In this document: one piece after another, positions 18,820 to 42,417 of the stretch | How positions within the stretch are numbered: position 1 is the first letter of the stretch | Layout of the letters: every line of letters begins with the position of its first letter | From: Patescibacteria group bacterium | Lineage (GTDB): Bacteria > Patescibacteriota > Microgenomatia > Levybacterales > UBA12049 | DNA length: 63,003 bases | Assembly: GCA_035510555.1 (NCBI GenBank) | Contig: DATKGX010000033.1 | Coordinates: 1 to 63,003, forward strand | Direction: 5' to 3' | The notes under the pieces: generated by a model | Seen by the model: only the letters and a program-made list of their open reading frames with translations | Databases searched by the model: none | What the model was told of the DNA's origin: nothing | Made by a program: the position numbers and the translations under genes

Positions 18820-19532
18820 TTAGCTCTCGCCCTCATTTTGATTACAAATGTCAGAGAATTAAATAGCTCTCTAAGGTTAACATTTGATTTACCGTAGATC
18901 CGAAAATTCCAAGTGATAGGAACTTCTTCAATCTTAAATCCCGCTAAGAATAATTTGTAAGCCGTTTCCGAAAGCGCAATAAACCCTTTTGATTCTATCT
19001 TCGTATTTGTTAAAAACTCCACCGCTTTCCGGTTATAAAGTCTAAAGCCGCTGGTGTGGTCGGTAAGATGCATTCCTAGCCAGTAATACAAGAATTTATT
19101 AATAACTCTACTCATGATTGTCCTGTTCGGGGCAATATTGATGATTTTCCCACCCGGTAAATATCTTGAGCCAATAATAAGACCTATGGATTCATCTCTT
19201 TTTTGCAAAAATCGCTTAAATTCTTTGGGATCATGGGCCAAATCAGAGTCCATTTCGAAAACATAGCGCATACTCTTCTTCTTTAACGCCTGTTTAAAAC
19301 CAAGTAGCACCGCGCTGCCTCTGCCCTCTTTTTTAAGTCTGGAAATAAGAATAATGCTTGCTTTACCTTTAACTATTTTTTGCAGCTTCTGGTTCTCCGT
19401 TGGTTTTGAATCGTCCACAATAATTATTCCTGAAGAGGGAAGTTCTTTCCGAATTCTTTTGAGTAGAACTGCGATACTTTGCACTTCATTATAGGAAGGG
19501 ATAACGATTGAAATGTCTTGATTACTTTTCAT
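18816..19532 (-). CDS. GT2 polyprenyl-phosphate sugar synthase (Dpm1/GtrB-like)
   Basis: ISIVIPSYNE...IIVDDSKPTE...EMDSDLAHDP. A short ~240-aa GT2 typical of polyprenol-phosphate mannose/glucose synthases. Confidence 0.7.
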   Translation of the reverse strand: MKSNQDISIVIPSYNEVQSIAVLLKRIRKELPSSGIIIVDDSKPTENQKLQKIVKGKASIILISRLKKEGRGSAVLLGFKQALKKKSMRYVFEMDSDLAHDPKEFKRFLQKRDESIGLIIGSRYLPGGKIINIAPNRTIMSRVINKFLYYWLGMHLTDHTSGFRLYNRKAVEFLTNTKIESKGFIALSETAYKLFLAGFKIEEVPITWNFRIYGKSNVNLRELFNSLTFVIKMRARAN

Positions 19533-22122
19533 AAATGGAAATAGTATCAGGTAATTGGATTAAAGCAGACATATAATATTCTTGTCTACTATTAAAAATG
19601 GAGAATGGCGGTGATTGAAGGCTAAAGGATTTAATTTTTTTATACTTTTGCTTGCTCAACTCCGCTAGAATCAACTTTTTATCCGAATTAAGCATATAGT
19701 TACTTTCTACATAATCGTCACTTATAATTATTACTTTAGGGAAAAGTTTTGTTTTGCTACTTATCACTTCATAAGCATATCTATTATTGATTGTCTGTTT
19801 GTATTGTTTTAAATAAAACTCTTTCAGGACAATATCGGGAATCATTTGATAAATCGGAATATTTTCTATTCCTATCAAAGTCCCGGGCTTAATATGTTGC
19901 GTGGTCCAAAGAGAAGAGGTAACTCTCGGATTATTATTATTTTTTAAAGTATTCCAAGACAATGATTCAACTAGCTGAATTAAAAGTAAACTTCCGACAA
20001 TAATTAGACAGATATATCTTAGGCTTTTTTTGTTGATTTTTTTATAAATTGACTCCCCTACTAAAGATGTGACCAAAGCCATAAAGGGCAACAAAGGAAT
20101 AAGTCTATTCGCGATAGCTCCCGTTCTTAATAAGAATAAGCCTAAAAGATAAGATATTAAACTTAAAAGTAAAACAACTACATATTTATGTTTAAAAATT
20201 ATTTCTCTAAAACTATTTCTTTTCGACAGCAACAACCTTAATGTTAAAATTATACCCACCAGTGAGAAAATTAAGAAACCAAAATAGAATACTCTACCAA
20301 AGGTTGCCGGATATAAATTTATAATAAAGTATTGCCAGTAATTCATGCCGAGATTTAAATTAGCTGAAATTACATTTGGGGTAGATGATAAATTAGATAC
20401 CAAATATTCTTTGAGACTTCCCTTTCCTAGTAAAATGTCCGGGATTCCAAAAAATAGAAAAGTAACGGTATAAATTAAGACGCCTAAAATCAGCATTCTT
20501 ATTTTTTTTCTTACATTAGACGTAAACAACAAAAATATTACGATATAAACAAATAATAAATTAAACGGCTCTAATTTCGTTGCTAATGCAAGCGCAGAAA
20601 ATATTCCCGCAAGCACAAAGTCTATTATTTTCTGTTTATCCGAGTAACGGAGCATAAATAGAAATGCCAAAAGCAACCAAAACTGCAAAGCTATATCGTA
20701 TTTAAAGTAATTGCTTAAAGTTATCCAAAGCGGATTAAAAACAAATAAAAATGCTACAAGAAATGGATTAATTTTAAAGTACTTTTTAGCTATATAAGCC
20801 AATAAGATTATAGAGAAAACGGCGAATAAAAGAGTATTCAACCTTAAAACTTCGAATAAAGTTGTTTGCGTAGATAAGCTTAATACAGAAGACTTTATGG
20901 CAAATGGATTTACAATACGCAATACGTAGAATGGGATTAGATATAATCCCGTAAGAAAGAACTGAAAAATTGAACCATTGGCTGCTCCTGACATGTTCGG
21001 CGTGCCGTAACGGAAAAGATCCCGCACCGATTGCGACTGATGCCATTCATCCATAAAATAATCAAAAGGATGGAACGGATTGGGAATTCCATAACTAATT
21101 ACAGATAGCATCGACACTATATATAATAGGATTATTAAAGACACTCCTTTGTTATTAAATATTATATTGAACAAGGCTTTGAGCGAGACCTTTTGCAGTA
21201 GGCCCAAAGTCGAACCCGCAAGTACCGCTAAATCGGATGTAAATTGCAGTAGAGGCAAATAAAGAAATGCCTGCGGACTTTTTATATATTTATAGTTTTT
21301 CCAAATTGACCAAATAATATATCCACCTATACAAAACATCAAGAATATATTCAGAAGTAAAGATTTTTCAATAAAGCTTAAAACTAAAAGATAAGCCGCT
21401 AGAATATATCTTAAAAAAATATAGAGAACTTTTTCGCGGAAAATGCCCGCTTGTATGTCGCCGAGGGCAAAACGGAAGAACATTTTAAAAGCTTGAAAGA
21501 TATTCTTGCGTGGTAGCCAATAAACGATGGCGTTTTTTGCAAAGAAAATTCTAAAGCCTGCCATTTTAATTTTATTAGCAAATGCATAGTCTTCGTTATG
21601 CGAAAGCTTCTCATCAAATCCTTTGAGACTCTTCCAGACATTTTTTCGAAAAGCCATGGATCTAGTTGCCGGCAAGAATTCACGCTTCTCAACTCTATCA
21701 GGCATGACCAAAACATAAGGAATTAAAGATTTCTGAAAACTGTTCCCTGCTAGTCCCTTGTAATATCCGGCAACAACACCAATTTTCTTATCGGTAAATG
21801 GTTTAGAAATATTTTTGACCCAGTTTTTATCTAGCAGACAACCTGCATCACTTAGTAGAATTATTTCAGAGGTAGCTTTTTTAATTGCTTCATTTCTGCC
21901 AACAGAGCGGTTACCATCCTTAACAATAACTTTGAGATTTAGCTTTGGATATTGCTCAATTTTATACCTGATAATTTCAATAGTCTTATCTTTACTTCCG
22001 CCATCCACAATAATCACTTCGCTTGGCAATAGGGATTGGTTAGCTATTGAATCGATAAAATTAGCGATGGAAGACTCTTCATTGAGCACTGTGCAAATTA
22101 ATGTTGCTCGCGGCTTTTGCAT
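19522..22122 (-). CDS. Fusion protein: GT2 glycosyltransferase plus large GT-C-like membrane domain
   Basis: The N-terminal ~230 aa reads TLICTVLNEE...VIIVDGGSKDKT...LSDAGC (GT2). More than 15 TM helices and a C-terminal soluble domain follow. Confidence 0.7.
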   Translation of the reverse strand: MQKPRATLICTVLNEESSIANFIDSIANQSLLPSEVIIVDGGSKDKTIEIIRYKIEQYPKLNLKVIVKDGNRSVGRNEAIKKATSEIILLSDAGCLLDKNWVKNISKPFTDKKIGVVAGYYKGLAGNSFQKSLIPYVLVMPDRVEKREFLPATRSMAFRKNVWKSLKGFDEKLSHNEDYAFANKIKMAGFRIFFAKNAIVYWLPRKNIFQAFKMFFRFALGDIQAGIFREKVLYIFLRYILAAYLLVLSFIEKSLLLNIFLMFCIGGYIIWSIWKNYKYIKSPQAFLYLPLLQFTSDLAVLAGSTLGLLQKVSLKALFNIIFNNKGVSLIILLYIVSMLSVISYGIPNPFHPFDYFMDEWHQSQSVRDLFRYGTPNMSGAANGSIFQFFLTGLYLIPFYVLRIVNPFAIKSSVLSLSTQTTLFEVLRLNTLLFAVFSIILLAYIAKKYFKINPFLVAFLFVFNPLWITLSNYFKYDIALQFWLLLAFLFMLRYSDKQKIIDFVLAGIFSALALATKLEPFNLLFVYIVIFLLFTSNVRKKIRMLILGVLIYTVTFLFFGIPDILLGKGSLKEYLVSNLSSTPNVISANLNLGMNYWQYFIINLYPATFGRVFYFGFLIFSLVGIILTLRLLLSKRNSFREIIFKHKYVVVLLLSLISYLLGLFLLRTGAIANRLIPLLPFMALVTSLVGESIYKKINKKSLRYICLIIVGSLLLIQLVESLSWNTLKNNNNPRVTSSLWTTQHIKPGTLIGIENIPIYQMIPDIVLKEFYLKQYKQTINNRYAYEVISSKTKLFPKVIIISDDYVESNYMLNSDKKLILAELSKQKYKKIKSFSLQSPPFSIFNSRQEYYMSALIQLPDTISIYEK

Positions 22123-24021
22123 ATTCTAATGATGGTTGAAATTATAGCATCTTGTGGCTTAGAATACATAGGAATGTTGGATAATCTACTATTTAGTTTG
22201 CCGGCGAATCTTTTTACAAAAATAGCACTCCTTAGACATGACTACGCCGGCGGCTTACTAGACTTGCGAGTTTTTATCACAATTTTTATTGGACTACTGC
22301 TATCGCTGGCACTGATTCTAATATCATATTTCTTGGGTGGAAAAATCCGCCGGTTTCTTAAAATTAACTTTTCCAACTTTAATTACTTAATTGATATCGG
22401 ACTTGGATATATATTTTTCTGCACGGGAATTGGATTGCTTGGCTTTTTTTCTCTGCTTACTCCCGCTATTTTGATAATCTACTTTTTATTTATATCCTTA
22501 TTGGCATTCTATCCATTCATAAACATTCCTAGATTATTTATAGAATTCATTCAAAGTTGTAAAAATTTACTGCCGGAAATTCGAAGTAATAAATTTATTT
22601 GGATATGGATAACTCTCTTTATTCTTTTAGCTTTTGCTACATTGGTCAATCCCGAAATTCGCGAAGACCAATACCATGTCGATTTTCCCAGGATTTATCT
22701 TAATAACCAAACCATCATGATTCCACCCAAAGAACAACTTCATGTTTCAGCTGCCCCAATGCTTTCCGAAATGTCTTACATGGCGGGTATTTTTTTGTGG
22801 TCGGTTGAATCCGCCAGGTATATTCACTTTGCTTTTTACCTACTGGTTTTACTTTCTCTATTTGAATTTTCAAGAATTAAGAACTATAAATTTGCGCTTT
22901 ACACGCCTTTGCTTTTTGCATCAGCACCGGTGATAATCCATGAAACTTCTTCCGTCTATACAGATTTGCAATGGGTTTTCTTCCTACTATTATCTTTAGC
23001 TATTTTACTGGGCAAAAAATTATCGGCAAAAGAATATTTTTTATCAGGCATTTTTTTAGGCGCAATGTTATCAGTAAAATTATGGACAATTATTTTTGTT
23101 CCGGTTTTAATAATTTATTTGCTTTTGGTGGGGCATAAATTCTTAACCCAAACGATTAAACATATCCTTGTTTTCAGTTTAGGCATAATCGGAGTATCGT
23201 TTATTTGGTTTTTAAGAACCTTTATTCTTACCGGTAATCCATTGTTCCCCGCTTTTAGTTCTCTATCAAACATCGGCACAGGAAGCGTACAATACGGTTT
23301 ATCACACTATTTAGGAATTAACCTGTATCTTTTAAATCCTGCAAATCTTATTAATGTTTTTAGTCCGCTGTTTTTTATTGGAATATGTCTAATAATTTAT
23401 AGATTAAGAAATAACCTGAAGTTTCTAAAATTAAACATTTTCATTTTTTTATTGATAACGTTTCTTTTTTATCTGATAACGCAATACATTTACGGACGTT
23501 ATTTAATCGGACTCTACATTCCACTGATATTTTTGGCATCGTTGGGAATTTACAATGCAGTTTCTAAATTCAAATTGACTAAATTATTTATAAGCTTAGT
23601 TCTTTTTATTTTATTTACATATTATTTTATTAATCAAATTCTAATTCTTCCTTACGCTTTTGGAATTGCCAACGAAAATAATTATCTAACCAGCATTTTA
23701 TCAAGGGACAATTCCAGTTATTATGATTTTGGAGGCAAATTCAATCAATATATCTCGGCAAAAGACTACGTTGCAACCTATAAAATATTCGGTTACTATT
23801 ACGCCAATTTTAAATTTATTGATGTAAACTTTATCTTTGACAAAAATAACATGTCATTTTATACGCTAAAAAAACGGGGAATTACAAAATTTTTTATTAA
23901 AGGAGGAGATATTAACTGGTTTTGTCAGAATGCGGGAATTTCCAATTGCGTTCCTTCAGAATATTCTTTGATTTCGTCTTACCAAAAATTCCCAACTTAC
24001 TATTTATATAGTATAAAATAG
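22117..24021 (+). CDS. GT-C-like polytopic membrane protein (start uncertain)
   Basis: 634-aa multi-TM ORF. The track start overlaps the divergent gene by 6 nt, so a downstream ATG (for example MLDNLL) is more plausible. Confidence 0.5.
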   Translation: MHILMMVEIIASCGLEYIGMLDNLLFSLPANLFTKIALLRHDYAGGLLDLRVFITIFIGLLLSLALILISYFLGGKIRRFLKINFSNFNYLIDIGLGYIFFCTGIGLLGFFSLLTPAILIIYFLFISLLAFYPFINIPRLFIEFIQSCKNLLPEIRSNKFIWIWITLFILLAFATLVNPEIREDQYHVDFPRIYLNNQTIMIPPKEQLHVSAAPMLSEMSYMAGIFLWSVESARYIHFAFYLLVLLSLFEFSRIKNYKFALYTPLLFASAPVIIHETSSVYTDLQWVFFLLLSLAILLGKKLSAKEYFLSGIFLGAMLSVKLWTIIFVPVLIIYLLLVGHKFLTQTIKHILVFSLGIIGVSFIWFLRTFILTGNPLFPAFSSLSNIGTGSVQYGLSHYLGINLYLLNPANLINVFSPLFFIGICLIIYRLRNNLKFLKLNIFIFLLITFLFYLITQYIYGRYLIGLYIPLIFLASLGIYNAVSKFKLTKLFISLVLFILFTYYFINQILILPYAFGIANENNYLTSILSRDNSSYYDFGGKFNQYISAKDYVATYKIFGYYYANFKFIDVNFIFDKNNMSFYTLKKRGITKFFIKGGDINWFCQNAGISNCVPSEYSLISSYQKFPTYYLYSIK

Positions 24022-24025
24022 AATT

Positions 24026-25759
24026 ATGACCGACGCGTACCATATGGTAATCGTAAATGTTATTACCTCTTGTCTGGTTTTTGGAGGAGTATTATTTTAC
24101 AAATTTATTTTCCCCAAGAAGAAGATTAATTTATTTGTTTTATTACTCGTAATTTCTATTTTGCCAGTCATTAGCATCGTCAGAACAGGTGTTTATGAAA
24201 GCGGAGACTTTAATCTACATATACGTAGAGCTATGGAATTTTATAGCCTACTCTCGCAGGGAAATTTTATTCCAACTTGGGCAGGCGACTTAAATGCAAC
24301 TTATGGCTATCCCCTATTTGCCTTTAATTACATTCTCCCCTATTACATAATTTCTTTATTTCATTTTGTGGGGCTTTCCTTTGTTGCGAGTATGAAAGTT
24401 TTCCTCTCCTTAAACATTGTTTTTTCTGCAGTTTTTATGTACTTCTTTACCAAAAATCATTTTAAAAATGCTCTTACCGCTTTTACCATTTCTATATTTT
24501 ATTTATTTGCGCCCTATCATTTAATTAACGTCCATTTCCGGATTACGGTAGGTGAAATTTTGGCTTACACGTTAATTCCGCTGGTTTTTTATTTTACACA
24601 AAAATTTATTAACCAAAAAAGAATTGTTTATCTTTTACTTTCAGGCTTAATGTTGGGATTAATAATTTTAAGCCATATCGCAGTTGCTATATATTTAATT
24701 CCCGCTATTATTCTTTACGCTTACATCACTGCAAAAACAATTAAGGAAACAGCTTTGTATTCTTTTTTCATTATTCTTATTTCACTGCTTGTAGCTTGCT
24801 TCCAATGGTCCGCATCGCTTATTTATTACCCTTATCTATTTGTCTCAACGCACCCGTCTTCCTACTTACCTTACTTTCCAACTATTAAAGATCTCTTGTA
24901 TTCTCCGTGGCGGTTGGGATTCTTGTTTCAAGGACCAAAAGGAGAACTTTCGTTTTTGCTAGGCTACGCTCAAGTCTTAGTCGTAGTTTCGCTAATAATA
25001 CTTTTGCTTAAAAAAAGAGACGGCAGCGCAACGAAAATAATTACGTTGTGGTTAACATTATTTTTTGTTTATATCTTTTTTGTTTTACCATATTCAAGTT
25101 TTATTTGGAAATATTTACCGGTTATAAAAGACAGCGGTTCACAACGGATTTTAATTCCGGTTGCTTTCTGCGCATCATTATTGGCCGGCTATCTTGCTAC
25201 TATTGTAAAAAAGAAATGGATAATATACGCCTTAATTTTATTAGCTATCGGAACAACAATCCTTAATTGGGGTAACAGAAGAACAATTCCTACGATTGAC
25301 GACGCTATTTTAAGAAATGATTTATCTTTAAGCTACCAGTGGGGAGATACACATATTTATGCTCTGCCAAAATGGGTCAATCCAGAACAACAATGGTTTA
25401 CAAAAATTCCGAAGTCTCATTTGGAAATCTTGAGCGGAAACGGAAATGTAGAGGAGCTTCAAAGAACATCAACTTTACACATCTATAAAATAAACGCACA
25501 AACACCCTTAAAATTAAGAGAAAATACTTTGTATTTCCCAGGCTGGACGGCAACGTTTAATGGTAAATCTGTTCTACTAGAACCTGACGGAAATGGAGTG
25601 ATTACTCTTAGTACGCCAAATGGAAAAGGAGAATTAATAATGAACTATCAAGATTTACTGCTTTTTCAATTAACTAAAATTATAAGCTTTGTATCTATAT
25701 TCTTAATTTGCCTTTATGTAATTATTTACTACTTAAAGATTCTAAAACAAAAGGCATGA
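24026..25759 (+). CDS. GT-C-like polytopic membrane protein
   Basis: 577 aa with many TM helices plus a C-terminal soluble beta-rich domain and a terminal TM. Same architecture as the neighbouring putative glycosyltransferases. Confidence 0.45.
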   Translation: MTDAYHMVIVNVITSCLVFGGVLFYKFIFPKKKINLFVLLLVISILPVISIVRTGVYESGDFNLHIRRAMEFYSLLSQGNFIPTWAGDLNATYGYPLFAFNYILPYYIISLFHFVGLSFVASMKVFLSLNIVFSAVFMYFFTKNHFKNALTAFTISIFYLFAPYHLINVHFRITVGEILAYTLIPLVFYFTQKFINQKRIVYLLLSGLMLGLIILSHIAVAIYLIPAIILYAYITAKTIKETALYSFFIILISLLVACFQWSASLIYYPYLFVSTHPSSYLPYFPTIKDLLYSPWRLGFLFQGPKGELSFLLGYAQVLVVVSLIILLLKKRDGSATKIITLWLTLFFVYIFFVLPYSSFIWKYLPVIKDSGSQRILIPVAFCASLLAGYLATIVKKKWIIYALILLAIGTTILNWGNRRTIPTIDDAILRNDLSLSYQWGDTHIYALPKWVNPEQQWFTKIPKSHLEILSGNGNVEELQRTSTLHIYKINAQTPLKLRENTLYFPGWTATFNGKSVLLEPDGNGVITLSTPNGKGELIMNYQDLLLFQLTKIISFVSIFLICLYVIIYYLKILKQKA

Positions 25760-26417
25760 TTTTTCTGTTAAAGTGAACATCGTCAAACACAAATCTTCTA
25801 ATTCTTTCTTTATTTTTGTCAATCAGCTTATCGTAAATATACACGAATTTATAGTTATTCATATCTGAGAATTGTTTTAATTTTTTATTCATTTTTTTGG
25901 CGATTAAAGACCTTTTTTCTCGATCTGCATAAAAGGGATAATTGTATATATTATTTTCTTCTCCTTGAGGGAGAACGTTAAATACGTATATGTTTGCAAG
26001 AGAGTATTTCCTTTTAACAAAGACTAGGAATTTAAAGTACTCCGCAACCGTTTCCTGTATAATTTGATCTATGCTTATTTTTCTTTCATTAGCAATCTTA
26101 TTGATATGAATTCTTACGTCAAGTTCCCCAAAGACAAATATTATATTTAGGGGTTTATTCCTGTATATCTTATTTAAAATCTTTAATACCTTGTTTTTAC
26201 TTTTTGTTGTGCTTTTTTTAAAATTTAATTTGTATGCTGTAGCTGGGCCTATGTGATAAATTATAAATGCCTCATGTTGAAAGCATAAAGTATGACTGTC
26301 TCCGATGACATTAAATATTGGTTTATTTGTAACTCTTCGAATAAATCTTTTTATCTCTAAGGTTTTGAAAAATATAATCCCTTTTGTTTTTTTGTATTGG
26401 AGATGTATGCTAAGCAT
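25722..26417 (-). CDS. SGNH/GDSL-like hydrolase (tentative)
   Basis: NVIGDSHT near the N-terminus (block I GDS) and FDDVHFN near the C-terminus (block V DxxH). Otherwise unrecognised. Confidence 0.35.
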   Translation of the reverse strand: MLSIHLQYKKTKGIIFFKTLEIKRFIRRVTNKPIFNVIGDSHTLCFQHEAFIIYHIGPATAYKLNFKKSTTKSKNKVLKILNKIYRNKPLNIIFVFGELDVRIHINKIANERKISIDQIIQETVAEYFKFLVFVKRKYSLANIYVFNVLPQGEENNIYNYPFYADREKRSLIAKKMNKKLKQFSDMNNYKFVYIYDKLIDKNKERIRRFVFDDVHFNRKIMPFVLESLSSK

Positions 26418-26423
26418 AGATGA

Positions 26424-27497
26424 TTACGTCCAAAGTCTTAAATAGAGGTTAACCATTTTTTCCCAAGTTTCGTTTTTTACCCAAAGATAGGCTCTAGTAA
26501 CTTCTAGGTTTTTCTTTTCCATGTAATTTTCTACCGCATTGCTTATTAAAGCTGCATCGCTGGTAATTGATATATATTTAGCAAAAGGTGCCATTTGCAA
26601 ATAATCTCTTTTAATTTCGTTATTGTACTGTGCGAAGACAGGTTTTTGTAAAGCCATCGCCTCAAGTATGCCTAGATACCTTGAACAAAAAACATATTCA
26701 TAATTTTTAATAAAGCTGCTCGCGTTGCCAACGAATCCTTTAAAATTTACCCTTAAATTGTGGGTTTTCGAGTAATTTAATGACTCAGATTTTAAGGCTC
26801 CGTCTCCGTAAACATCTAGGCTCAAGATTATACGTCTTTCTTGCAAGAAATTTAATGCTTTTAAATATTCTAAAATTCCCGTCTCCTCCTCCAATCTTCC
26901 TAGAAACATCGCGCTATTTTTCTGAGAAACATTAGTTTTTGAGTTTTTAGTTTTACTGTCACTTAAATTGACTGCTCCGTATGTTACAAAAGTTGGTTTT
27001 GTGCCATACCATTTTTTTAAAAAATCTCCGACACAAATATTTCCATAAGAAAGTTTTTCCGCCAGCTTATGCATTAATTTTGCTTTTGTATTTGGAATGT
27101 TATTTCCTTCATATCCGTGGAAAGTTGTATAGACTTTTTTAGTCGGATATAAAAACCGGAAGGGAAGGTACCAGAAGAAGACATCATGACAATGGATAAT
27201 GTCAGCACTTATGATTATTCTTTTTAGCTTCCAAAGCTGCTTCCAAACCCGAAATTTCTTAAACCAATCGTCTGCGCCTGCGTTAATCCGGAAAATTTCG
27301 ATTCCGGCGACTTTTCCCGTAAGCCTGGCGCTCTTGGAGACAGAGTGATAATTTTGACCATTCGTATTTTTTTCGAGTTCCGTGATGACGATTACTTTGT
27401 GGCCTTTTTTAACTAATCGCTTGCCAACTTCCAAAACATGCTTCTCTACCCCACCAATTTGCGGATAAAACCTCCTCGCCAAAAACACAATAGTCAT
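26424..27497 (-). CDS. GT4 (GT-B fold) glycosyltransferase
   Basis: N-terminal RRFYPQIGGVEKHVLEVGKRLVKKGHKVIVIT is typical of GT4 enzymes. Confidence 0.8.
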   Translation of the reverse strand: MTIVFLARRFYPQIGGVEKHVLEVGKRLVKKGHKVIVITELEKNTNGQNYHSVSKSARLTGKVAGIEIFRINAGADDWFKKFRVWKQLWKLKRIIISADIIHCHDVFFWYLPFRFLYPTKKVYTTFHGYEGNNIPNTKAKLMHKLAEKLSYGNICVGDFLKKWYGTKPTFVTYGAVNLSDSKTKNSKTNVSQKNSAMFLGRLEEETGILEYLKALNFLQERRIILSLDVYGDGALKSESLNYSKTHNLRVNFKGFVGNASSFIKNYEYVFCSRYLGILEAMALQKPVFAQYNNEIKRDYLQMAPFAKYISITSDAALISNAVENYMEKKNLEVTRAYLWVKNETWEKMVNLYLRLWT

Positions 27498-36449: not shown

Positions 36450-38600
36450 ATGCAAAACGATAAGGTGATTTTGGAAATTAAAACTCCCAGAAATACCGAG
36501 GAGACTTCGGAAGCCATGGCTCAATTCCTTTCCAGTCTGGTTAACTTAAAACGCCAGATATTATATTTTTATAAGCGTGGAATTCCGATTAGCCTGGAGA
36601 TTGCCACTTTTGAGCAAAGAACCCATTTTTTTATCGTAGTTCCGCAGAAACTGCAAACCTTTATTGAGGGTCAGCTAACCGCCCAGTACCCAAAAGCGCT
36701 GATTGTCAGAAACAAGGATTATTTACCGGATATTTTAAACTCCCCGGGGCAACTTTATGAGGGGAGACTCAAGCTAAAACACGGAGCCCTGTTCCCCATA
36801 AAAACCTATAAGGATTTTAAAGATGTAGATCCATTAAGCTCGATTTTAGGAATTTTGGCAAAACTGGATAAAGACGACAGGGCGGTAATCCAATACTTAC
36901 TGGTGCCAATCGGTACCGGCTGGCAGGCAAAAGGACAAGGGGCAATTCTTAAAAGCACCGATCCGGACAAAGAAAATCCCCTCAATCAATATAAAAAAAT
37001 TATTACCGATAAAATCAGTCAAAACGGTTTTAGGACGGGAATAAGAATTTTAGTAAAAAGCGATAATCCCAGTTTGTTTTTTAATATTATTAATGGATTT
37101 TCTATTTTTAATAATCCCATTGGTAACAGTTTTTTCCTAAGACGTCCGCATCTTTGGCAAAACAAAAGATTTGAAAAAGCGCTTCTTAGCAGGAGCAGGT
37201 CTTTTATACCGAGTAATCAAGTTCTAAATATTTCGGAAGTTGCCAGTCTTTATCATCTTCCAACAGAACAGCTCGCTAAAATCCACAATCTCTCTTGGAC
37301 CAAAGCCATTTTTTCCGAGCCGCCGGAAAATTTACCGATCGCTCAAGGTTTGGGTGACGCAGAAAAACAGGAGATTAATTTTTTTGCCACTACCGAATTT
37401 AAAAATAAACTGACCAATTTTGGTATCAAAAGAAAAGACAGACGAAAACACACTTATATAATCGGAAAAACCGGCGCCGGAAAATCAACACTCATCGCCA
37501 ACATGGTGATTAATGACATTAGAAATGACGAAGGAGTAGCGGTTATTGACCCGCACGGAGATTTGACGGAAATAATTTTGGATTACATCCCATCGCACCG
37601 GATTAATGACGTAATTTACTTGGACCCATCCGATTCTTCATCCAGCTCTTTTCATCTTAACCCTTTGGAGGTTGGAAACACTCAGAAAGAATTAGTTGCT
37701 TCCGGCATTGTTTCTATTTTTAAAAAGTTGTACGGAAATTCCTGGGGACCAAGACTTGAATATATTCTAAGAAATACTATTTTAACTCTTTTGGAAGTTC
37801 CCGATTCGACTTTTTTGGAAGTTCCCGGTTTATTAACGGATAAAAGTTACCGGGATAAAGTTGTTGCTAAGTTAAACGATCCGGTTTTAAAGAATTACTG
37901 GCTGAACGAATTCGAAACAATGACACCAAGGCTGATGAGCGAGTCTATTTCGCCAATCCTTAATAAAGTCGGCCAATTTATCTCTTCCAATATTGTTAGA
38001 AATATTATCGGCTCGCCTAAATCCACCATTGATTTGGAAAAAATTATGAATGAAGGAAAAATTGTACTACTTAATCTTTCTCAGGGGAAATTAGGAGAAG
38101 ATAATTCGTCGCTTTTAGGCGCGATGATAATTACAAAATTACAATTGGCGGCGATGAACCGGGTTGATTTAGCCGAAGAGCAAAGAAAAGATTTTTATCT
38201 TTACGTTGACGAATTCCAAAACTTTGCCACTAATTCTTTTATTAAGATTTTGTCTGAAGCCAGAAAATACCGCTTAGATTTAATCATGGCAAACCAATAT
38301 ATGGCGCAGGTACCCGAAGATGTCCGGGCGGCGATTTTTGGCAATGTCGGAAGCTTAATTTCTTTTATAGTCGGGGCGCAGGATGCTTTTTACTTAGCCA
38401 AAGAATTAGGAGAAAGATTTAAAGAGGAAGATTTATTGGCTTTGGGCAATTATCAAATTTTAACCAAACTGTCTATTGACAGTATTACTTGCCCGCCATT
38501 TTTGGCGCAAACTTTACCTTTGCCAATCAGTAAAAACCAAAACCGCGAAACGGTAATCCGCGTCTCTAAAGAAAGATATTCCCAGCCCACGAAAGAATAA
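36450..38600 (+). CDS. VirD4/TraD/HerA-like P-loop ATPase with a large N-terminal domain of unknown function
   Basis: Walker A IIGKTGAGKST and Walker B FYLYVDEFQNF, in a C-terminal ATPase module like T4SS coupling proteins or DUF87. The N-terminal ~330 aa is unrecognised. Confidence 0.7.
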   Translation: MQNDKVILEIKTPRNTEETSEAMAQFLSSLVNLKRQILYFYKRGIPISLEIATFEQRTHFFIVVPQKLQTFIEGQLTAQYPKALIVRNKDYLPDILNSPGQLYEGRLKLKHGALFPIKTYKDFKDVDPLSSILGILAKLDKDDRAVIQYLLVPIGTGWQAKGQGAILKSTDPDKENPLNQYKKIITDKISQNGFRTGIRILVKSDNPSLFFNIINGFSIFNNPIGNSFFLRRPHLWQNKRFEKALLSRSRSFIPSNQVLNISEVASLYHLPTEQLAKIHNLSWTKAIFSEPPENLPIAQGLGDAEKQEINFFATTEFKNKLTNFGIKRKDRRKHTYIIGKTGAGKSTLIANMVINDIRNDEGVAVIDPHGDLTEIILDYIPSHRINDVIYLDPSDSSSSSFHLNPLEVGNTQKELVASGIVSIFKKLYGNSWGPRLEYILRNTILTLLEVPDSTFLEVPGLLTDKSYRDKVVAKLNDPVLKNYWLNEFETMTPRLMSESISPILNKVGQFISSNIVRNIIGSPKSTIDLEKIMNEGKIVLLNLSQGKLGEDNSSLLGAMIITKLQLAAMNRVDLAEEQRKDFYLYVDEFQNFATNSFIKILSEARKYRLDLIMANQYMAQVPEDVRAAIFGNVGSLISFIVGAQDAFYLAKELGERFKEEDLLALGNYQILTKLSIDSITCPPFLAQTLPLPISKNQNRETVIRVSKERYSQPTKE

Positions 38601-38618
38601 GCTCTCCAAAAAGGAAAA

Positions 38619-38807
38619 AAGGCACCATGGGGTAATAAAATAAAAAAAGTAGCTGACGAAAAGTCAGCAAGACTGCGCGTGCAGTAAATACTCTTTAGAG
38701 TCTATCACCTTACGGTGCCTTTAACACTTGAGTGCGTTGCGAAAATGGTTCGAGACCTTTCTCAACAGTTAGACTGCGAGTTGATTTCCCGAAACGGGTG
38801 TTTTTTT
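38619..38807 (+). ncRNA. Candidate structured RNA or 3'UTR ending in an intrinsic terminator
   Basis: A closing stem aaggcacc (38619-38626) / ggtgcctt (38714-38721) encloses three hairpins at 38652-38668, 38672-38685 and 38690-38701. Downstream lies cccg-aaa-cggg followed by T7 (38788-38807). No family recognised. Confidence 0.25.
38788..38807 (+). terminator. Weak rho-independent terminator
   Basis: The 4-bp GC stem cccg/cggg, a 3-nt loop, then tgTTTTTTT. Lies 188 nt after the ATPase stop. Confidence 0.4.
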
Positions 38808-38842
38808 GAACATAGTAGTCCTCTTTTCTCCTAAATGGAGAG

Positions 38843-38907
38843 GCTCAGCATCAGGTAGCTTGGTGTGGATCCAAAATTGGATCTTTATACCAGATGCTTG
38901 GCTGAGC
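38843..38907. other. Long imperfect hairpin at the left edge of the high-GC island
   Basis: Arms gctcagcatc (38843-38852) and gatgc-ttg-gctgagc (38893-38907), with an inner palindrome gatccaaaattggatc (38868-38883). Confidence 0.4.
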
Positions 38908-38959
38908 ACACTCCTTACGAGCTACTTATCGGACATAGACGTCCTGCGTGCGAGAGCGA

Positions 38960-40156
38960 TTAGCCCTGCAGAGAACGGCGCTGTGTCCGAATAGTCAAGA
39001 GACCAAGACCAGCGAACGCCAAAGAGACGAGCAGCGCGATGGGCAGGAAGCCCGAGTTGCTGTCAGGACCTGACGTGCCGTTGGTGCTGGTGACAGGCGG
39101 AGTCGCAACCGGAGTCGCACAGGGTGGAGGCGTGACTTGGACAGCTATGGCCGCTCCAACAGAAACGCACGTGGGTGCGGGTGTCGGAGTCGGACATACG
39201 CCGATGGTGAAGGTGCCGCCAACCATGTCGTTAGCCTTGGCATCTCGCCATTCGTATGTGTACACGCCGGGATTCAGCTGGATGGCATCGAAGCCCTTGG
39301 TGACAAGGATGTCGCCGGGTTCGATAACCAGATACCAACCTTCGGGAACGCCGGTGAATGCGACAGTACCGCCGCAATTCACGACAGGATCCGAAGGAGG
39401 AGTCGGCTTGTTGCACAGGCCAAGATCGTTGACGACCGGCCCTGTTACAACCGTGGGGAAATCCGTCCAGCGAACCCACAAATGATCACCGCCGTTGTCG
39501 GCATATGTGGTGGTAGTCATGGGTCCACCCCAACCGCCGCCAGCGATGGGATCGTTTTGGCTGGACCAGTCGATGGAGCTGCTCCAGTTGATTCCGTTAG
39601 TGGAGAACTCCATGCCGTAGCCCTTTACGACGCCCGGAAGAACGATGTACCAATTGAATTCGTTGTACGTCGAATCGGGCGGGTCAGGCGGGTTCTGAAG
39701 TGACGTCTGACATACGGCTGTGATGATGGGCTTAGCCGGCAGTGTCGGGCACGAAGGCGTCGGCAGCGTCTTCGTTTCCGTGAACTCGGTAACCGTCTGG
39801 CCGTGGTCAGTGTAGGTGATGGTTAGGGTGACTGAACCGCTGGTGACCGTCGTGCCGGACTTGCTCCAGATGACGAGGTCGCCAGAGTTGTGCGTTGTGT
39901 CGTAGTGACCGTTGGTGATGCCCGTTTGTCCGGGGATCGTGGTCGTCACTTTGACGGTACGATCCATGGTAACGTTGTTCGCCAACGAGACTACAGCTGT
40001 CCAGCCGACGGGGGCACACGCTTGCGTGACCACGACGTCGCCTGAGTGTCCTTGCACCTGAGCCGGAGCTACGACCGATGTGGCCGAAAAGGCGCCGGCT
40101 ACGAGCAGGATTGAAACCGCGAGCAGACCGAGTTGTCTACCGTATTTCTTGAACAC
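38960..40156 (-). CDS. Secreted, C-terminally anchored cell-surface protein (398 aa)
   Basis: GTG start with GAGG 5 nt upstream. Signal peptide MFKKYGRQLGLLAVSILLVAGAFSA. Beta-rich, Thr/Gly/Cys-containing body, a Pro/Thr linker, then SGFLPIALLVSLAFAGLGLLTI-RTQRR, a hydrophobic helix plus basic tail. Confidence 0.75.
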   Translation of the reverse strand: MFKKYGRQLGLLAVSILLVAGAFSATSVVAPAQVQGHSGDVVVTQACAPVGWTAVVSLANNVTMDRTVKVTTTIPGQTGITNGHYDTTHNSGDLVIWSKSGTTVTSGSVTLTITYTDHGQTVTEFTETKTLPTPSCPTLPAKPIITAVCQTSLQNPPDPPDSTYNEFNWYIVLPGVVKGYGMEFSTNGINWSSSIDWSSQNDPIAGGGWGGPMTTTTYADNGGDHLWVRWTDFPTVVTGPVVNDLGLCNKPTPPSDPVVNCGGTVAFTGVPEGWYLVIEPGDILVTKGFDAIQLNPGVYTYEWRDAKANDMVGGTFTIGVCPTPTPAPTCVSVGAAIAVQVTPPPCATPVATPPVTSTNGTSGPDSNSGFLPIALLVSLAFAGLGLLTIRTQRRSLQG

Positions 40157-40233
40157 GAGTACCTCACTTCGTTGAATAGGACTTCCCTTCCGTGGGAACT
40201 TAACCTTGTCCCTTTGTCCGATTCACCTCCCTA

Positions 40234-40479
40234 TTACAAACCTGCATGGTTTGACATGCTCGGTCGTTGGTGCTTGGCGGGCACGAGACGGAACTTCCGG
40301 CCTCCGATGGTTACGCGTGAACAAGTGTTCACTTTACTGCGCACCACGAAGGGGAATCCGCACCGACCGCAAAATGCGATTGGTTGCCCTCCACTGTCGT
40401 TAACCAATAGTGAGCCACCGCAGTGTGAACAGCCTTCCTGGCTGGCCTTACTGGCGGTGAGCAATGGGAGTGTTCCCAT
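40234..40479 (-). CDS. Small zinc-ribbon protein (81 aa), tentative
   Basis: ATG preceded by GAAGGA 8 nt upstream. C17-x2-C20-x16-C37-x2-C40 motif. Same strand and composition as its neighbours. The region is also highly self-complementary, so it could instead be a structured leader. Confidence 0.4.
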   Translation of the reverse strand: MGTLPLLTASKASQEGCSHCGGSLLVNDSGGQPIAFCGRCGFPFVVRSKVNTCSRVTIGGRKFRLVPAKHQRPSMSNHAGL

Positions 40480-40542
40480 CTACTGATTCCTTCACTTTTG
40501 ACGGAAGAACTCGCCGTTAAGGCAAGCTTGGGTGAGTGAACG

Positions 40543-40686
40543 TTACAGGCTCTTGCCGAGCGTGCTCAACACTGAAGTGATGGCATGACTCAGGAAGAGC
40601 AAAGCCAACACGGCCGCGATGGCGATGAGTGCAAGGATCATAGCGTATTCCGCGAGACCTTGTCCCCTCTGAAAGTAACGAGACAT
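40543..40686 (-). CDS. flp: Flp/Fap-family type IVb prepilin (47 aa), absent from the ORF track
   Basis: Hand translation: MSRYFQRGQGLAEYAMILALIAIAAVLALLFLSHAITSVLSTLGKSL. It matches the Flp motif G/XXXXEY (RG|QGLAEY) followed by a hydrophobic helix. AAGGAG SD 7 nt upstream; 144 nt in frame to TAA. Confidence 0.8.
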   Translation of the reverse strand: MSRYFQRGQGLAEYAMILALIAIAAVLALLFLSHAITSVLSTLGKSL

Positions 40687-40783
40687 CCTAATGCTCCTTC
40701 CTTGGAATTACTTCCAAGATTGGGTGGGACGCTAACCTAGCTACTGCTATTACCTACATACTTGCGCGAGGCAAGTTGTTGGC

Positions 40784-41338
40784 TTACGAGCAGGCAGCAG
40801 AGGCGGTAACACGCTCGACGTCTACACGATCGAGGATGGTGTTTTCCGCGTCTGTGTCTGCATCAACGACAGCTTGGCTTTTGTGATTGATGAAGTCGTT
40901 CATCAGCAGAATGTCCGCGTTGTACAGAAGCAGTAGGTCGGCGTGAAAGACAGAGTAGCAGGCCATCGGCGGATTGAGTCCAAGCCATTTGACGGCTGCT
41001 GCATCATCTGCTTTCGCTTTATCGACGGCGACTGTAAACGCTGCGTTGGTGGTCGCGGCATTGAAGGCATCTGTGTCTGCATTAAAAGTGCTCTGAGTTG
41101 CCATATCCCAGGCGCTAAACACCGAGAACGGCGTACCGGACTCTGTTGGAGACGCGGTTGGCGCCATGGTCGGAGCAGGTGTGACATGGATGGTCGGAGC
41201 AGGTGTGACGTAGATGGTCACCGGTGTCGGAACTGGAGCCATGGTCGGAGCTGGGGTAACGACTACCGTAGTACTCGTACAACCCGCCGCGGCAATGACC
41301 AGAACGACCAGACCAAGTAGGTATGCAAGTTTCTTCAA
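40784..41338 (-). CDS. Lipoprotein with Pro/Thr-rich repeats (184 aa)
   Basis: TTG start with GGAG 6 nt upstream. Signal peptide plus lipobox-like IAAAGC. (V/A)TPAPT(M/I) repeats, then an Ala/Asp-rich helical domain. Confidence 0.7.
   Translation of the reverse strand: MKKLAYLLGLVVLVIAAAGCTSTTVVVTPAPTMAPVPTPVTIYVTPAPTIHVTPAPTMAPTASPTESGTPFSVFSAWDMATQSTFNADTDAFNAATTNAAFTVAVDKAKADDAAAVKWLGLNPPMACYSVFHADLLLLYNADILLMNDFINHKSQAVVDADTDAENTILDRVDVERVTASAACS
41166..41260 (-). repeat. Imperfect 24-27-nt tandem repeat (about 4 units) inside the lipoprotein gene
   Basis: atggtcggagcaggtgtgac at 41166 and, identically, at 41190. Diverged units at 41214 and 41241. Encodes the TPAPT repeats. Confidence 0.8.
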
Positions 41339-41730
41339 CGGAATCTCCAGTTTATGGGTGGCCGAAAAAACAAGTTCTTACTTAAGCCCTATCGATGTTC
41401 ACCTCCATGATAACTCTCTCTTCTCTAACGATTGGATTACCGCGGATCAGAGCTTTATTGGCTCGAATCGCGATTTTGAAATGTCCTTCTCCCTTAACTA
41501 CTAAATACTAAAACTTCTACTCGTCGAGCACTAGACACTAACTAATTAATGCCCAAAGCTCGACGAATAAAAGAACATTTTTCGCAACTTGTCAAAGTGC
41601 AAATGAATACTAAGCGACCAAACAAAACTCCGGACAACAAATTAGTCCGGGCTTATTTAATCACTAAGTAGGGATACTATCAGAAAAATGTCTAAAAGTC
41701 AAACTATGGGTCGAGCTTAAGTGAGGTTTA

Positions 41731-41773
41731 ATTTTTTTGTCTTAAGAATGCGGGCTAAGCCACAGCGAAGTCC
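41731..41773 (+). repeat. 43-nt imperfect direct repeat, copy 1 (downstream of the NYN gene)
   Basis: atttttttgtcttaagaatgcgggctaagccacagcgaagtcc matches 42581-42623 at 33/43 positions without gaps, exactly 850 nt away. Confidence 0.7.
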
Positions 41774-41829
41774 TGAAAGCATTTGAAGAAAATACCTAAG
41801 ACATTCCTAGTTTTTAGTTTCTTTTCTTA

Positions 41830-42417
41830 CTAACTTTTTACTAATTGAGGACAGGCTCCAATTACCTCTGGGTTTCTAAGAAGAACTGTTCTGTCTGTTG
41901 TATATGCTAGTCCTTTATTAGGATTATTCTCAAAACCCAAATATATAACTTCAACTCCTCTTTGTTTAAGCTCTCTAACCGCTGGTTGTAAGTCAGAATC
42001 AGAACTACAAAGAATGGCTGTCTTAAGTTCACCATCACAAGCTAAAGAAACTAAATCTACAGCAATTCTTACATCAACTCCCTTTTCTCTAAAAACAAGT
42101 TTCTCTCCGACCTTTTGAGCTCTTACATTCCCAGCAATTATAAATTCATAACCATGTTTTATAAGATTATTTCTTAGTTTTCTCTGAAAGCTGATTAACT
42201 CCTCCGATTTCTTTCTTGTTTCAGGATGAGAATGTAATTTTGCAGCGTAAAATATTTTTCTGGAGATATTAAAACCCTTAAGCGCTTCTCTTAATAATTT
42301 ACTGACATCTATTGAGGCCAAGTCTATTTTACTTTTATCAATTCCTTCATTTTTTAAAACTTCTTCAACTTTATTAATAAAGTTTTCGCCATCAATAAAA
42401 AGAATAATTTTAGACAT
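41830..42417 (-). CDS. NYN-domain (LabA/DUF88-like) putative RNase
   Basis: ILFIDGENF at the N-terminus and LCSSDSDLQPAV, characteristic of NYN/LabA PIN-like nucleases. Confidence 0.75.
   Translation of the reverse strand: MSKIILFIDGENFINKVEEVLKNEGIDKSKIDLASIDVSKLLREALKGFNISRKIFYAAKLHSHPETRKKSEELISFQRKLRNNLIKHGYEFIIAGNVRAQKVGEKLVFREKGVDVRIAVDLVSLACDGELKTAILCSSDSDLQPAVRELKQRGVEVIYLGFENNPNKGLAYTTDRTVLLRNPEVIGACPQLVKS

Follow-up and report, generated by a model that had tools for sequence, protein, structure and literature searches.

Classical genomic islands are recognised by a sharp deviation in base composition, a patchy distribution among close relatives, composition-matched homologues in distant organisms and accessory surface functions, and both islands and horizontal gene transfer have already been documented in general terms for the Patescibacteria (PMC12455944). 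A further point of reference is the vls locus of Borrelia, whose cassettes reach a guanine-plus-cytosine (GC) content of 49% compared to 28.6% for the genome and have been argued to be under selection (PMC11499132). Flp/Tad (type IVb) pilins and the conjugation loci of Gram-positive bacteria, in which a TcpA/VirD4-like DUF87 ATPase is accompanied by adhesins, complete the closest described systems. Here, we analysed the contig DATKGX010000033.1 of a Levybacterales genome (GenBank assembly GCA_035510555.1), a stretch of 63,003 nucleotides (nt) referred to as the window, which carries a GC-rich island with minus-strand genes at positions 38,925-41,527. We consider it probable that this island is a real and functional cluster of surface genes of foreign origin, which was assembled stepwise in a variable slot of the chromosome. 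Patescibacteria, or bacteria of the candidate phyla radiation (CPR), are thought to live attached to other cells, and the mediating surface molecules and their sources are largely unknown. The island holds surface-protein modules common to Levybacterium and co-occurring high-GC bacteria and could provide a handle on the identity of such partners and on the mode of attachment.

With classical genomic islands, the locus has in common the sharp compositional deviation, the patchiness among close relatives, the accessory surface functions and a variable intergenic site, which in the sister species is occupied by an element with an integrase. Composition-matched distant homologues were found for the largest island protein (398 amino acids, aa), not for the putative lipoprotein. 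The locus differs from the classical type in that no integrase, tRNA target, significant direct repeat or transposase was found at it, in that it is composite and partly older than the species split, yet unameliorated, and in that a GC-rich block recurs beside one and the same gene, encoding an ATPase, across a candidate phylum-level group.

An earlier note on this DNA, made from the letters alone, had described an abrupt compositional step, and this step appears in sliding GC content, third codon positions and tetranucleotides alike and is unique within the 63 kb. In 300-nt sliding windows, GC content rises from 0.36-0.43 to 0.53-0.62 at approximately 38,800-41,400 and then falls to 0.30-0.40. 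Windows of 1 kb taken over all 63 kb have a mean GC content of 0.388 (standard deviation (sd) 0.051), compared to 0.52-0.587 in the island, which is the sole region above the maximum of 0.461 reached elsewhere. The GC content at third codon positions (GC3) is 0.677, 0.585, 0.667 and 0.568 in the four minus-strand open reading frames (ORFs) of the island, whereas 54 background ORFs yielded 0.357±0.063 (range 0.18-0.48, maximum 0.479). First and second codon positions (GC1 and GC2) are likewise elevated, relative synonymous codon usage also deviates from that of the host genome, and the tetranucleotide distance between island and background lies 10.8 sd above that of all other 2.6-kb windows. 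No rRNA or Rfam RNA was found that could cause the GC-rich blocks. The approximate limits given above mark the points where homology with the native flanks of the sister species ends and restarts.

The island is a genuine part of the chromosome of a Levybacteria-type (Microgenomates/CPR) bacterium. Exact-protein look-ups located the 398-aa protein and the 184-aa putative lipoprotein on 17-19 contigs, which stem from 12 or more samples and were produced by three different pipelines (SPAdes-type scaffolds, MEGAHIT k141/k119 and Logan). Every such contig shows the same neighbours, NYN-ftsZ-ftsA on one side and the genes of the ATPase and isoleucyl-tRNA synthetase (IleRS) on the other. BLASTN alignments through both junctions were 99.9-100% identical in at least 17 contigs, several of which had 0 mismatches across 8 kb. 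Within the population, the island is almost invariant, with 2 single-nucleotide polymorphisms inside it, too few to polarise the direction of mutation; apparent junction variants in two loci (L010 and L009) turned out to be scaffold N-gaps only, and with such gaps two scaffolds bridge the junction regions. The contig is not mis-assembled, and tools that clean metagenome-assembled genomes (MAGs) by GC content could wrongly discard such regions.

The closest species with the same arrangement is represented by two loci (L018/L057), in which the ATPase is 95% and IleRS 83-85% identical at the amino-acid level. Both carry a GC-rich block (0.51-0.59) at the same place and have neither the lipoprotein nor the NYN gene. 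In L018, the block contains a 68%-identical Flp gene and a homologue, 53% identical, that corresponds to the C-terminal two thirds of the 398-aa protein. At the nucleotide level, homology between the window and L018 is continuous (82%) up to 38,924, is confined within the island to 39,095-39,667 (71%) and 40,552-40,702 (72%), and restarts in low-GC DNA at 41,528-41,786 (76%); positions 40,703-41,527 have no counterpart in L018. Since this homology covers only parts of the island, the island is composite and partly older than the species split. Native genes compared with L018 gave a synonymous divergence (dS) of 0.9-2.2 at a ratio of nonsynonymous to synonymous divergence (dN/dS) of 0.03-0.05, and the island genes gave a dS of 1.1-1.4 at a dN/dS of 0.31 for the 398-aa gene and 0.25 for the Flp gene. 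The island is under purifying selection, and the comparison of these ratios with those of native genes indicates that its genes are functional but fast-evolving. The earlier note had proposed a recent acquisition from a high-GC donor. A high-GC origin finds support for the 398-aa protein (see below), while the word 'recent' had to be given up, because L018 has counterparts of the Flp gene and of the C-terminal two thirds of the 398-aa gene that are as diverged as native genes. Nor was the transfer a single event. Before the split from the sister species, the ancestor would have possessed the Flp gene and a surface protein made of domains B and C and an anchor, and domain A and the lipoprotein segment, which are specific to the lineage of the window, would have been gained or exchanged after the split.

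Other relatives lack the island beside the ATPase (L019, L076, L104, L058 and L060). In three of them (L019, L076 and L104; ATPase 91-96% identical), the arrangement is different, and an acyltransferase gene follows approximately 15 bp after the ATPase gene. In L018, the space between the Flp gene and ftsZ is occupied by a low-GC element of about 7 kb (L018:14511-21635; GC content at four-fold degenerate sites 0.21), the genes of which encode a double-helix-turn-helix Xre-like protein, a ClpP-like SDH protease, a CAP-domain protein and a tyrosine recombinase (Phage_integrase, E=5.6e-33). As this element replaces the NYN gene and the lipoprotein, the interval between the ATPase gene and ftsZ is a hotspot for several kinds of insertions.

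Support for a foreign source comes from the 398-aa protein (38,960-40,156, minus strand), which was characterised by its homologues, an AlphaFold2 model and dN/dS. It consists of an N-terminal signal or transmembrane helix, three domains A, B and C, a Pro/Thr-rich linker, a C-terminal transmembrane helix and a basic tail. Domain A (residues ~34-135) is a beta-sandwich modelled with a pLDDT of 80-90, domain B (~140-250) is poorly modelled, and domain C (~255-326) is a repeat domain that forms a small beta domain in the model; helices were predicted at residues 6-20 and 371-397. A fold search with the model returned generic Ig/FN3-like similarity only, with nothing at E<=1e-3. Homologues are few and occur on high-GC contigs and in L018 only. 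Domain A matches three of them (P0004, P0008 and P0009) and has no match in L018, and domain B matches P0007 and the copy of the sister species. Domain C recurs as a repeat in P0002-P0006, with 81% identity to the second repeat of P0002 compared to 76% for the sister-species copy; the C-terminal anchor is common to all members of the family. Because its domains match different homologues, the protein is a mosaic. Wherever the context was readable, the homologues from outside Levybacteria (P0002-P0009) lie beside housekeeping genes on contigs with a uniform GC content of 0.56-0.65, one of which carries tandem paralogues of the family. Two high-GC homologue contigs share a sample series with window-like contigs, and the codon and tetranucleotide usage of the island resembles that of the high-GC homologue contigs. 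These sequence relationships support a high-GC origin of the 398-aa protein. No relatives of it were found on viral contigs or plasmids, and a search of the sigma factor of one high-GC contig (L052) against PDB sequences gave no taxonomic indication.

The C-terminus of the family deserves a separate remark. The C-terminus of the 398-aa protein (encoded at 38,960-39,080) and those of P0002-P0009 have in common a Ser/Thr/Gly-rich stretch followed by a motif of the approximate form (S/T)xP(L/I)(F/I)A(L/I)L(I/V)(C/S)LAF(A/G)(A/G)(L/F)GL...QRR, which may be an undescribed sorting or anchoring signal. The C-terminus of the 398-aa protein (...SNSGFLPIALLVSLAFAGLGLLTIRTQRRSLQG) has no LPXTG-like motif, and neither it nor the family motif is matched by the sorting-signal models of NCBIfam. 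In the locus of one homologue (P0005 in L054), a weak sortase match lies at a distance of 3 kb and a gene of the IS605 OrfB/TnpB type directly adjoins; the same contig contains an IMPDH gene with Hom_end_hint and LAGLIDADG matches and therefore an intein (L054:1-1138).

Upstream of the 398-aa gene lies a short gene for a 47-aa Flp-type prepilin-like peptide (RGQGLAEYAMILALIAIAAV...; 40,543-40,686, minus strand), which was assigned by its motif and family matches. With its short basic leader, its G/xxxxEY motif and the subsequent hydrophobic stretch, it resembles the Flp/Tad pilins, and it differs from them in scoring below the Pfam thresholds (Flp_Fap, PF04964, 19.1 bits at a cut-off of 32.2; DUF4244, 20.3 bits at a cut-off of 27). 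The adjacent ATPase is of the coupling-protein type and not of the TadA type. Hundreds of similar peptides exist: 833 representative clusters matched at E<=1e-3, the best being peptides of 50-60 aa with the same motif. Judged by its sequence, the peptide is typical of the very large family of Flp pilins of the RGQGLAEYALILALIAI type. The earlier note had linked its leader to Chloroflexota-like lineages, but the family is so widespread that the peptide is diagnostic of no lineage. The third gene (40,784-41,338, minus strand) encodes a putative 184-aa lipoprotein with a signal peptide, a PT-rich linker that contains a 27-nt repeat, and a C-terminal domain. By inspection, the signal peptide ends in a lipobox (...IAAAG|C; MKKLAYLLGLVVLVIAAAG|C) with the invariant cysteine. 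The GC3 of this gene is 0.57.

The earlier note had counted four genes, and these three are credible. Its fourth, an 81-aa ORF with a CxxC...CxxC pattern described as a zinc ribbon (40,234-40,479, minus strand), is doubtful. Gene callers predicted it on none of the contigs that carry the region, its codon-usage score is negative in every frame, and it has no homologue, no blastx match, no L018 counterpart and only sub-threshold Pfam matches. The stretch is probably a lineage-specific non-coding spacer, and a role of the ORF as a regulator is without support. A Shine-Dalgarno-like site precedes all four ORFs, as had been noted before (GAGG, AAGGA (weak), AAGGAG and GGAG).

How would such a set of genes be expressed in its new environment? 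Both flanks of the island are conserved and of native composition. On the left, a non-coding element extends from the stop codon of the ATPase gene to the island (38,605-38,763, read on the minus strand) and is ~98% identical to L018 even though synonymous sites in the genes beside it are saturated. An intrinsic terminator of the minus strand (38,652-38,668, with a T-run) is nested here in a larger stem. The element has no Rfam match and is likely the 3' end of the island operon; it could also be a small RNA or a structured 3' untranslated region (UTR). On the right, the conserved low-GC upstream region (41,528-41,786, minus strand) shares 76% identity with L018 14237-14499, the stretch immediately before the Flp gene of L018. 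It includes a promoter-like site TTGACT-17-TAGTAT (-35 at 41,702-41,697, -10 at 41,679-41,674; TGGTATAAT in L018), followed by a hairpin at 41,630-41,650 and a U-run at 41,620-41,629. We read this region as a probable native promoter and leader driving the island genes, so that the foreign genes appear to sit between expression signals of native composition. Each of the two flanks also bears one arm of a 16-nt inverted repeat (GTTGCGAAAATGGTTC, 38,736-38,751, pairing with GAACATTTTTCGCAAC, 41,573-41,588). The arms match at 14/16 positions, their 10-mer core occurs at these two sites only in the 63 kb, and the repeat is kept in L018. Statistically it is marginal, with 3.3 chance matches expected at <=3 mismatches, and other clades lack it; its role could be that of a 5'UTR-3'UTR pairing, a pair of operators or a recombination site.

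Taken together, we propose that the island forms a small operon from a foreign, high-GC source. It would be read from the lipoprotein through the Flp-type pilin to the 398-aa Ig-like anchored protein, and it is situated in a variable slot between the gene of the coupling-protein-like ATPase and the point where the cell-division (dcw) cluster ends. Transcription would probably start at the conserved native promoter and leader of the low-GC right flank and stop at the conserved native terminator of the left flank. All three products would be exported via Sec; the lipoprotein would then be lipidated, the Flp peptide processed at its G/xxxxEY site and the 398-aa protein retained in the membrane through its C-terminal helix. 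Together, the products would be displayed on the cell surface, with attachment as the most plausible purpose. The 'adhesion cassette' of the earlier note is a plausible idea.

Several observations weigh against a foreign, stepwise assembled cluster. A near-identical donor gene was not present among 5.8 billion proteins, where the best match outside Levybacteria was 57% identical overall, and the lipoprotein is an ORFan with a self-match only in the same collection; this exhaustive search with context was word-based, so that distant high-GC homologues of the lipoprotein could escape it, as could those of the cargo family 18 discussed below. Nothing points to a mechanism of insertion, be it a mobility gene, a tRNA or a significant direct repeat: tRNAs were not found near the island, flanking direct repeats or att sites were not significant around it, integrase and transposase families had no Pfam match in the six island and flanking ORFs or in ten ORFs at 7.5-29 kb, and the precomputed annotation of 29-51 kb lists no recombinase family. 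The earlier note had likewise seen no integrase, transposase or flanking direct repeats. Machinery for a pilus (TadA/CpaF, TadB/C, TadV) and a sortase were not detected in the same ten ORFs and the same annotation, which together cover about 7.5-51 kb. Finally, GC3 is still 0.68 and 0.61 in the shared genes despite a dS of 1.1-1.4, as large as that of native genes. These values do not fit well with a single ancestral transfer and subsequent neutral amelioration, under which a clear decay of GC3 would be expected. The retained GC3 suggests either a later re-import, which is supported by domain A and the lipoprotein, or active maintenance.

Unexpectedly, the pattern extends to a wider set of loci. 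In a clade whose ATPase is ~61-63% identical to that of the window, at least 15 loci carry GC-rich blocks of 1.5-4 kb (0.54-0.62) immediately upstream of the ATPase gene, with the same native flanks and differing families of secreted or anchored proteins, such as TSP3, He_PIG, dockerin-like, PT-rich FPPTGG-anchored and Band_7 proteins; in two loci (L021/L023), the cargo proteins end in FPPTGG, followed by a transmembrane segment and a basic tail. Across 43 low-GC loci with ±10-kb flanks plus the window, we counted 18 GC-rich ORFs in 213 kb within <=3.5 kb of the ATPase compared to 3 in 278 kb farther away, an approximately 8-fold enrichment that is uncorrected for phylogeny. Island and cargo blocks correlate in tetranucleotides (r 0.65-0.76) and codon usage (r 0.56-0.72) and are closer to each other than to the sampled high-GC contigs. 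One cargo family (family 18) has 25 homologues; all five contexts examined are slots and none is a high-GC genome. Its GC3 is 0.49-0.85 compared to 0.21-0.38 in adjacent native genes, and it diverges between species (42-47%) much like a native neighbour gene (43%), yet with GC3 values of 0.63-0.85 compared to 0.21-0.33 in native genes. A different state was found in another member of the ~61% clade, on a 741-kb contig (L062:6300-8000). The slot there holds a family-11-like gene with an overall GC content of still 0.49 and a native-level GC3 (0.36), a state resembling that of an old acquisition after amelioration. The GC3 of the ATPase gene is unusually high at this locus (0.52).

On the cargo strand of the ~61% clade, the cargo is preceded by a conserved promoter close to consensus and by a leader with two hairpins, in which compensatory changes occur. 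This conserved element, ~160 nt in size, lies upstream of the ATPase, with a promoter TTGACA-17-TACAAT and an invariant 20-mer (GCACATTAACAAGGTATGCAG), and is seen in L023:7800-8596, L021:9400-9990, L047:8600-9400 and L066/L115/L128/L071/L121/L129/L130/L133. Its first hairpin, which is followed by a U-run, shows the compensatory changes ACCC/GGGT, GCCC/GGGC and AACC/GGTT, and the longer second hairpin encloses an AAGGAG-like stretch. The element is not in Rfam; it may act on the cargo genes as an attenuator or leader RNA. A covariance model (R1) recovers the leader throughout the ~61% clade and has no match in the window; the right flank of the island was therefore rejected as a homologue of this leader.

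From these loci, a joint picture may be drawn, which we put forward tentatively and rate well short of likely: Levybacteria would possess a 'cargo slot' tied to an orphan DUF8128/DUF87 ATPase, in which a conserved native promoter and leader serve fast-evolving surface genes that stay GC-rich across speciation, be it by continual re-import from high-GC partners (possibly hosts) or by selection or biased conversion, and the island of the window would be one instance. We found no description of such an ATPase-linked GC-rich locus type in the literature. If true, this wider pattern would represent a previously undescribed type of locus for acquiring or diversifying surface proteins in an uncultivated phylum, and a compositional anomaly of unusual persistence over long evolutionary time.

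The main rival explanation is that the high GC content is actively maintained and not simply left over from transfer, the slot being an ATPase-linked expression site for variable surface proteins. Selection or GC-biased gene conversion at a recombination hotspot would act here in a way that in principle resembles the situation at the vls locus of Borrelia. The density of GC-rich ORFs near the ATPase, the differing cargo between common native flanks, the conserved promoter and leader, the slot-bound and natively diverging family 18 and the GC-rich copies of the window and L018 at dS≈1 all agree with this idea, and the vls locus provides a precedent for a surface-protein locus lying about 20 percentage points above an AT-rich genome across species, for which selection has been proposed (PMC11499132). 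However, the window lacks the hallmarks of vls: we found no paralogous fragments or silent cassettes in the 63 kb, a GC skew of -0.08 on the coding strand, and 17 G-runs compared to 26 C-runs. The cargo also differs from vls in that high-GC organisms have demonstrable relatives of one or more of its genes, the family of the 398-aa protein being plainly present in high-GC genomes, and in that whole families, rather than variants of one gene, differ between species. Moreover, the fall of GC3 to the native level in L062 implies that cargo genes do ameliorate, which speaks against a maintaining force that acts universally; the flank of the window is not matched by the leader model, and the enrichment takes no account of phylogeny. 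We regard maintenance as unlikely, and a foreign cluster assembled in steps as the better account of the island.

A further explanation concerns the ATPase itself. The low-GC native gene (36,450-38,600, plus strand) encodes a 716-aa P-loop ATPase, as supported by Pfam, annotation and orthologues. TrwB_AAD_bind, DUF87 and TraG-D_C all score above their curated cut-offs, a Walker A motif (GKTGAGKS) and a DEFQN box are visible in the sequence, and the precomputed annotation assigns an N-terminal DUF8128, on which a literature search yielded nothing. The protein is ~25% identical over 90% of its length to DUF87 ATPases on Bacillus plasmids, which adjoin relaxase-family and TcpD/TcpE genes. From these domains and this alignment, we conclude that it is a homologue of conjugative coupling proteins of the VirD4/TrwB/TcpA type. 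Orthologues with 47-96% identity occur across Microgenomates, including MAGs labelled Levybacteria/Levyibacteriota; PDB sequences gave no match, and viral contigs and plasmids gave no relatives except the distant plasmid coupling ATPases. The locus therefore resembles Gram-positive conjugation loci in an ATPase that is homologous over ~90% of its length and in the surface-anchored proteins that adjoin it. It differs from them in the absence of a relaxase, VirB4/TcpF, TcpC/D/E and other transfer genes nearby and in the nature of the ATPase, which has native composition, is conserved across Microgenomates like a core gene and matches no viral contig.

Given such an ATPase, the block might be cargo DNA which, similar to T-DNA, is exported into a high-GC partner or host and carries host-like codons for expression there. 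The tight linkage of GC-rich cargo to the ATPase in many genomes, even those with differing synteny, the similarity of cargo codon usage to that of high-GC organisms and the conserved non-coding sequence and inverted repeat around the cargo would fit, but neither a relaxase nor an oriT nor any component of a type IV secretion system or Tcp apparatus was found in the scanned and annotated ORFs of the window (29-51 kb) or beside the ATPase in relatives. The cargo genes also have ordinary bacterial Shine-Dalgarno sites and an apparent native AT-rich promoter, the inverted repeat is marginal and not present in other clades, and the cargo was not found on plasmid or viral contigs. We regard an export substrate as very improbable.

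Even less can be said for the view that no transfer took place and that the GC excess follows from the Thr/Pro/Ala/Gly/Val-rich composition of native secreted proteins. The island proteins are indeed rich in A, T, P and V and poor in K, I and E, in keeping with the raised GC1 and GC2, but the synonymous shift is equally strong: the 398-aa gene has a GC content of 0.63 at four-fold degenerate sites (GC4) compared to 0.41 in native genes, a C/(C+T) of 0.74 compared to 0.32 at two-fold pyrimidine sites and a G/(G+A) of 0.60 compared to 0.29 at two-fold purine sites. Spacers inside the island have a GC content of 0.49, whereas background intergenic DNA has 0.37. As synonymous classes and spacers are both shifted, amino-acid bias is insufficient as an explanation; native secreted proteins of relatives are moreover normal in GC content (e.g. 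L120 480-1247 and L058 4786-5544), and homologues reside in high-GC genomes.

An assembly chimera, in which a fragment of a high-GC organism was joined into a CPR contig as the earlier note had allowed, has in its favour the abrupt shift in composition and an N-gap in each of two scaffolds (38,794-38,910 and 41,831-41,926), which shows that some assemblies had difficulty at the edges. It is practically refuted by the recurrence of both junctions across contigs, samples and pipelines, by the diverged homologue between homologous flanks at the same site of another species (L018/L057) and by the regulatory flanks of native composition on both sides of the block.

Next to the island, the NYN-domain gene (41,830-42,417, minus strand) has the lowest GC3 of the window (0.18). 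Its absence from the sister species, which has the integrase-bearing element in its place, indicates that it is part of the same variable region, and it may itself be an accessory, AT-rich acquisition. An NYN gene with 53% identity was seen 3 kb upstream of the ATPase in a distant locus (L043). The annotated part at 29-51 kb comprises the dcw cluster and other housekeeping genes, and the ten ORFs scanned with Pfam at 7.5-29 kb have chiefly glycosylation and polysaccharide functions. A gene cluster for glycosyltransferases, PMT_2, Wzy and a flippase lies at 7.5-27.5 kb, and part of it coincides with a wide GC trough (0.29-0.33) at 19,500-27,000. This trough may be a second variable region, AT-rich in this case, for glycosylation of the cell envelope. 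In addition, the Microgenomates-type ATPase of this locus is encoded, at 46-65% identity, by several GTDB representative MAGs labelled 'uncultured Pseudomonadales/Gammaproteobacteria' (L028, L030, L034, L037, L038, L041, L043-L045 and L048-L050). The GC content of these contigs (0.35-0.51) is similar to that of Woesebacteria-labelled loci, and the taxonomic labels of these MAGs look unreliable.

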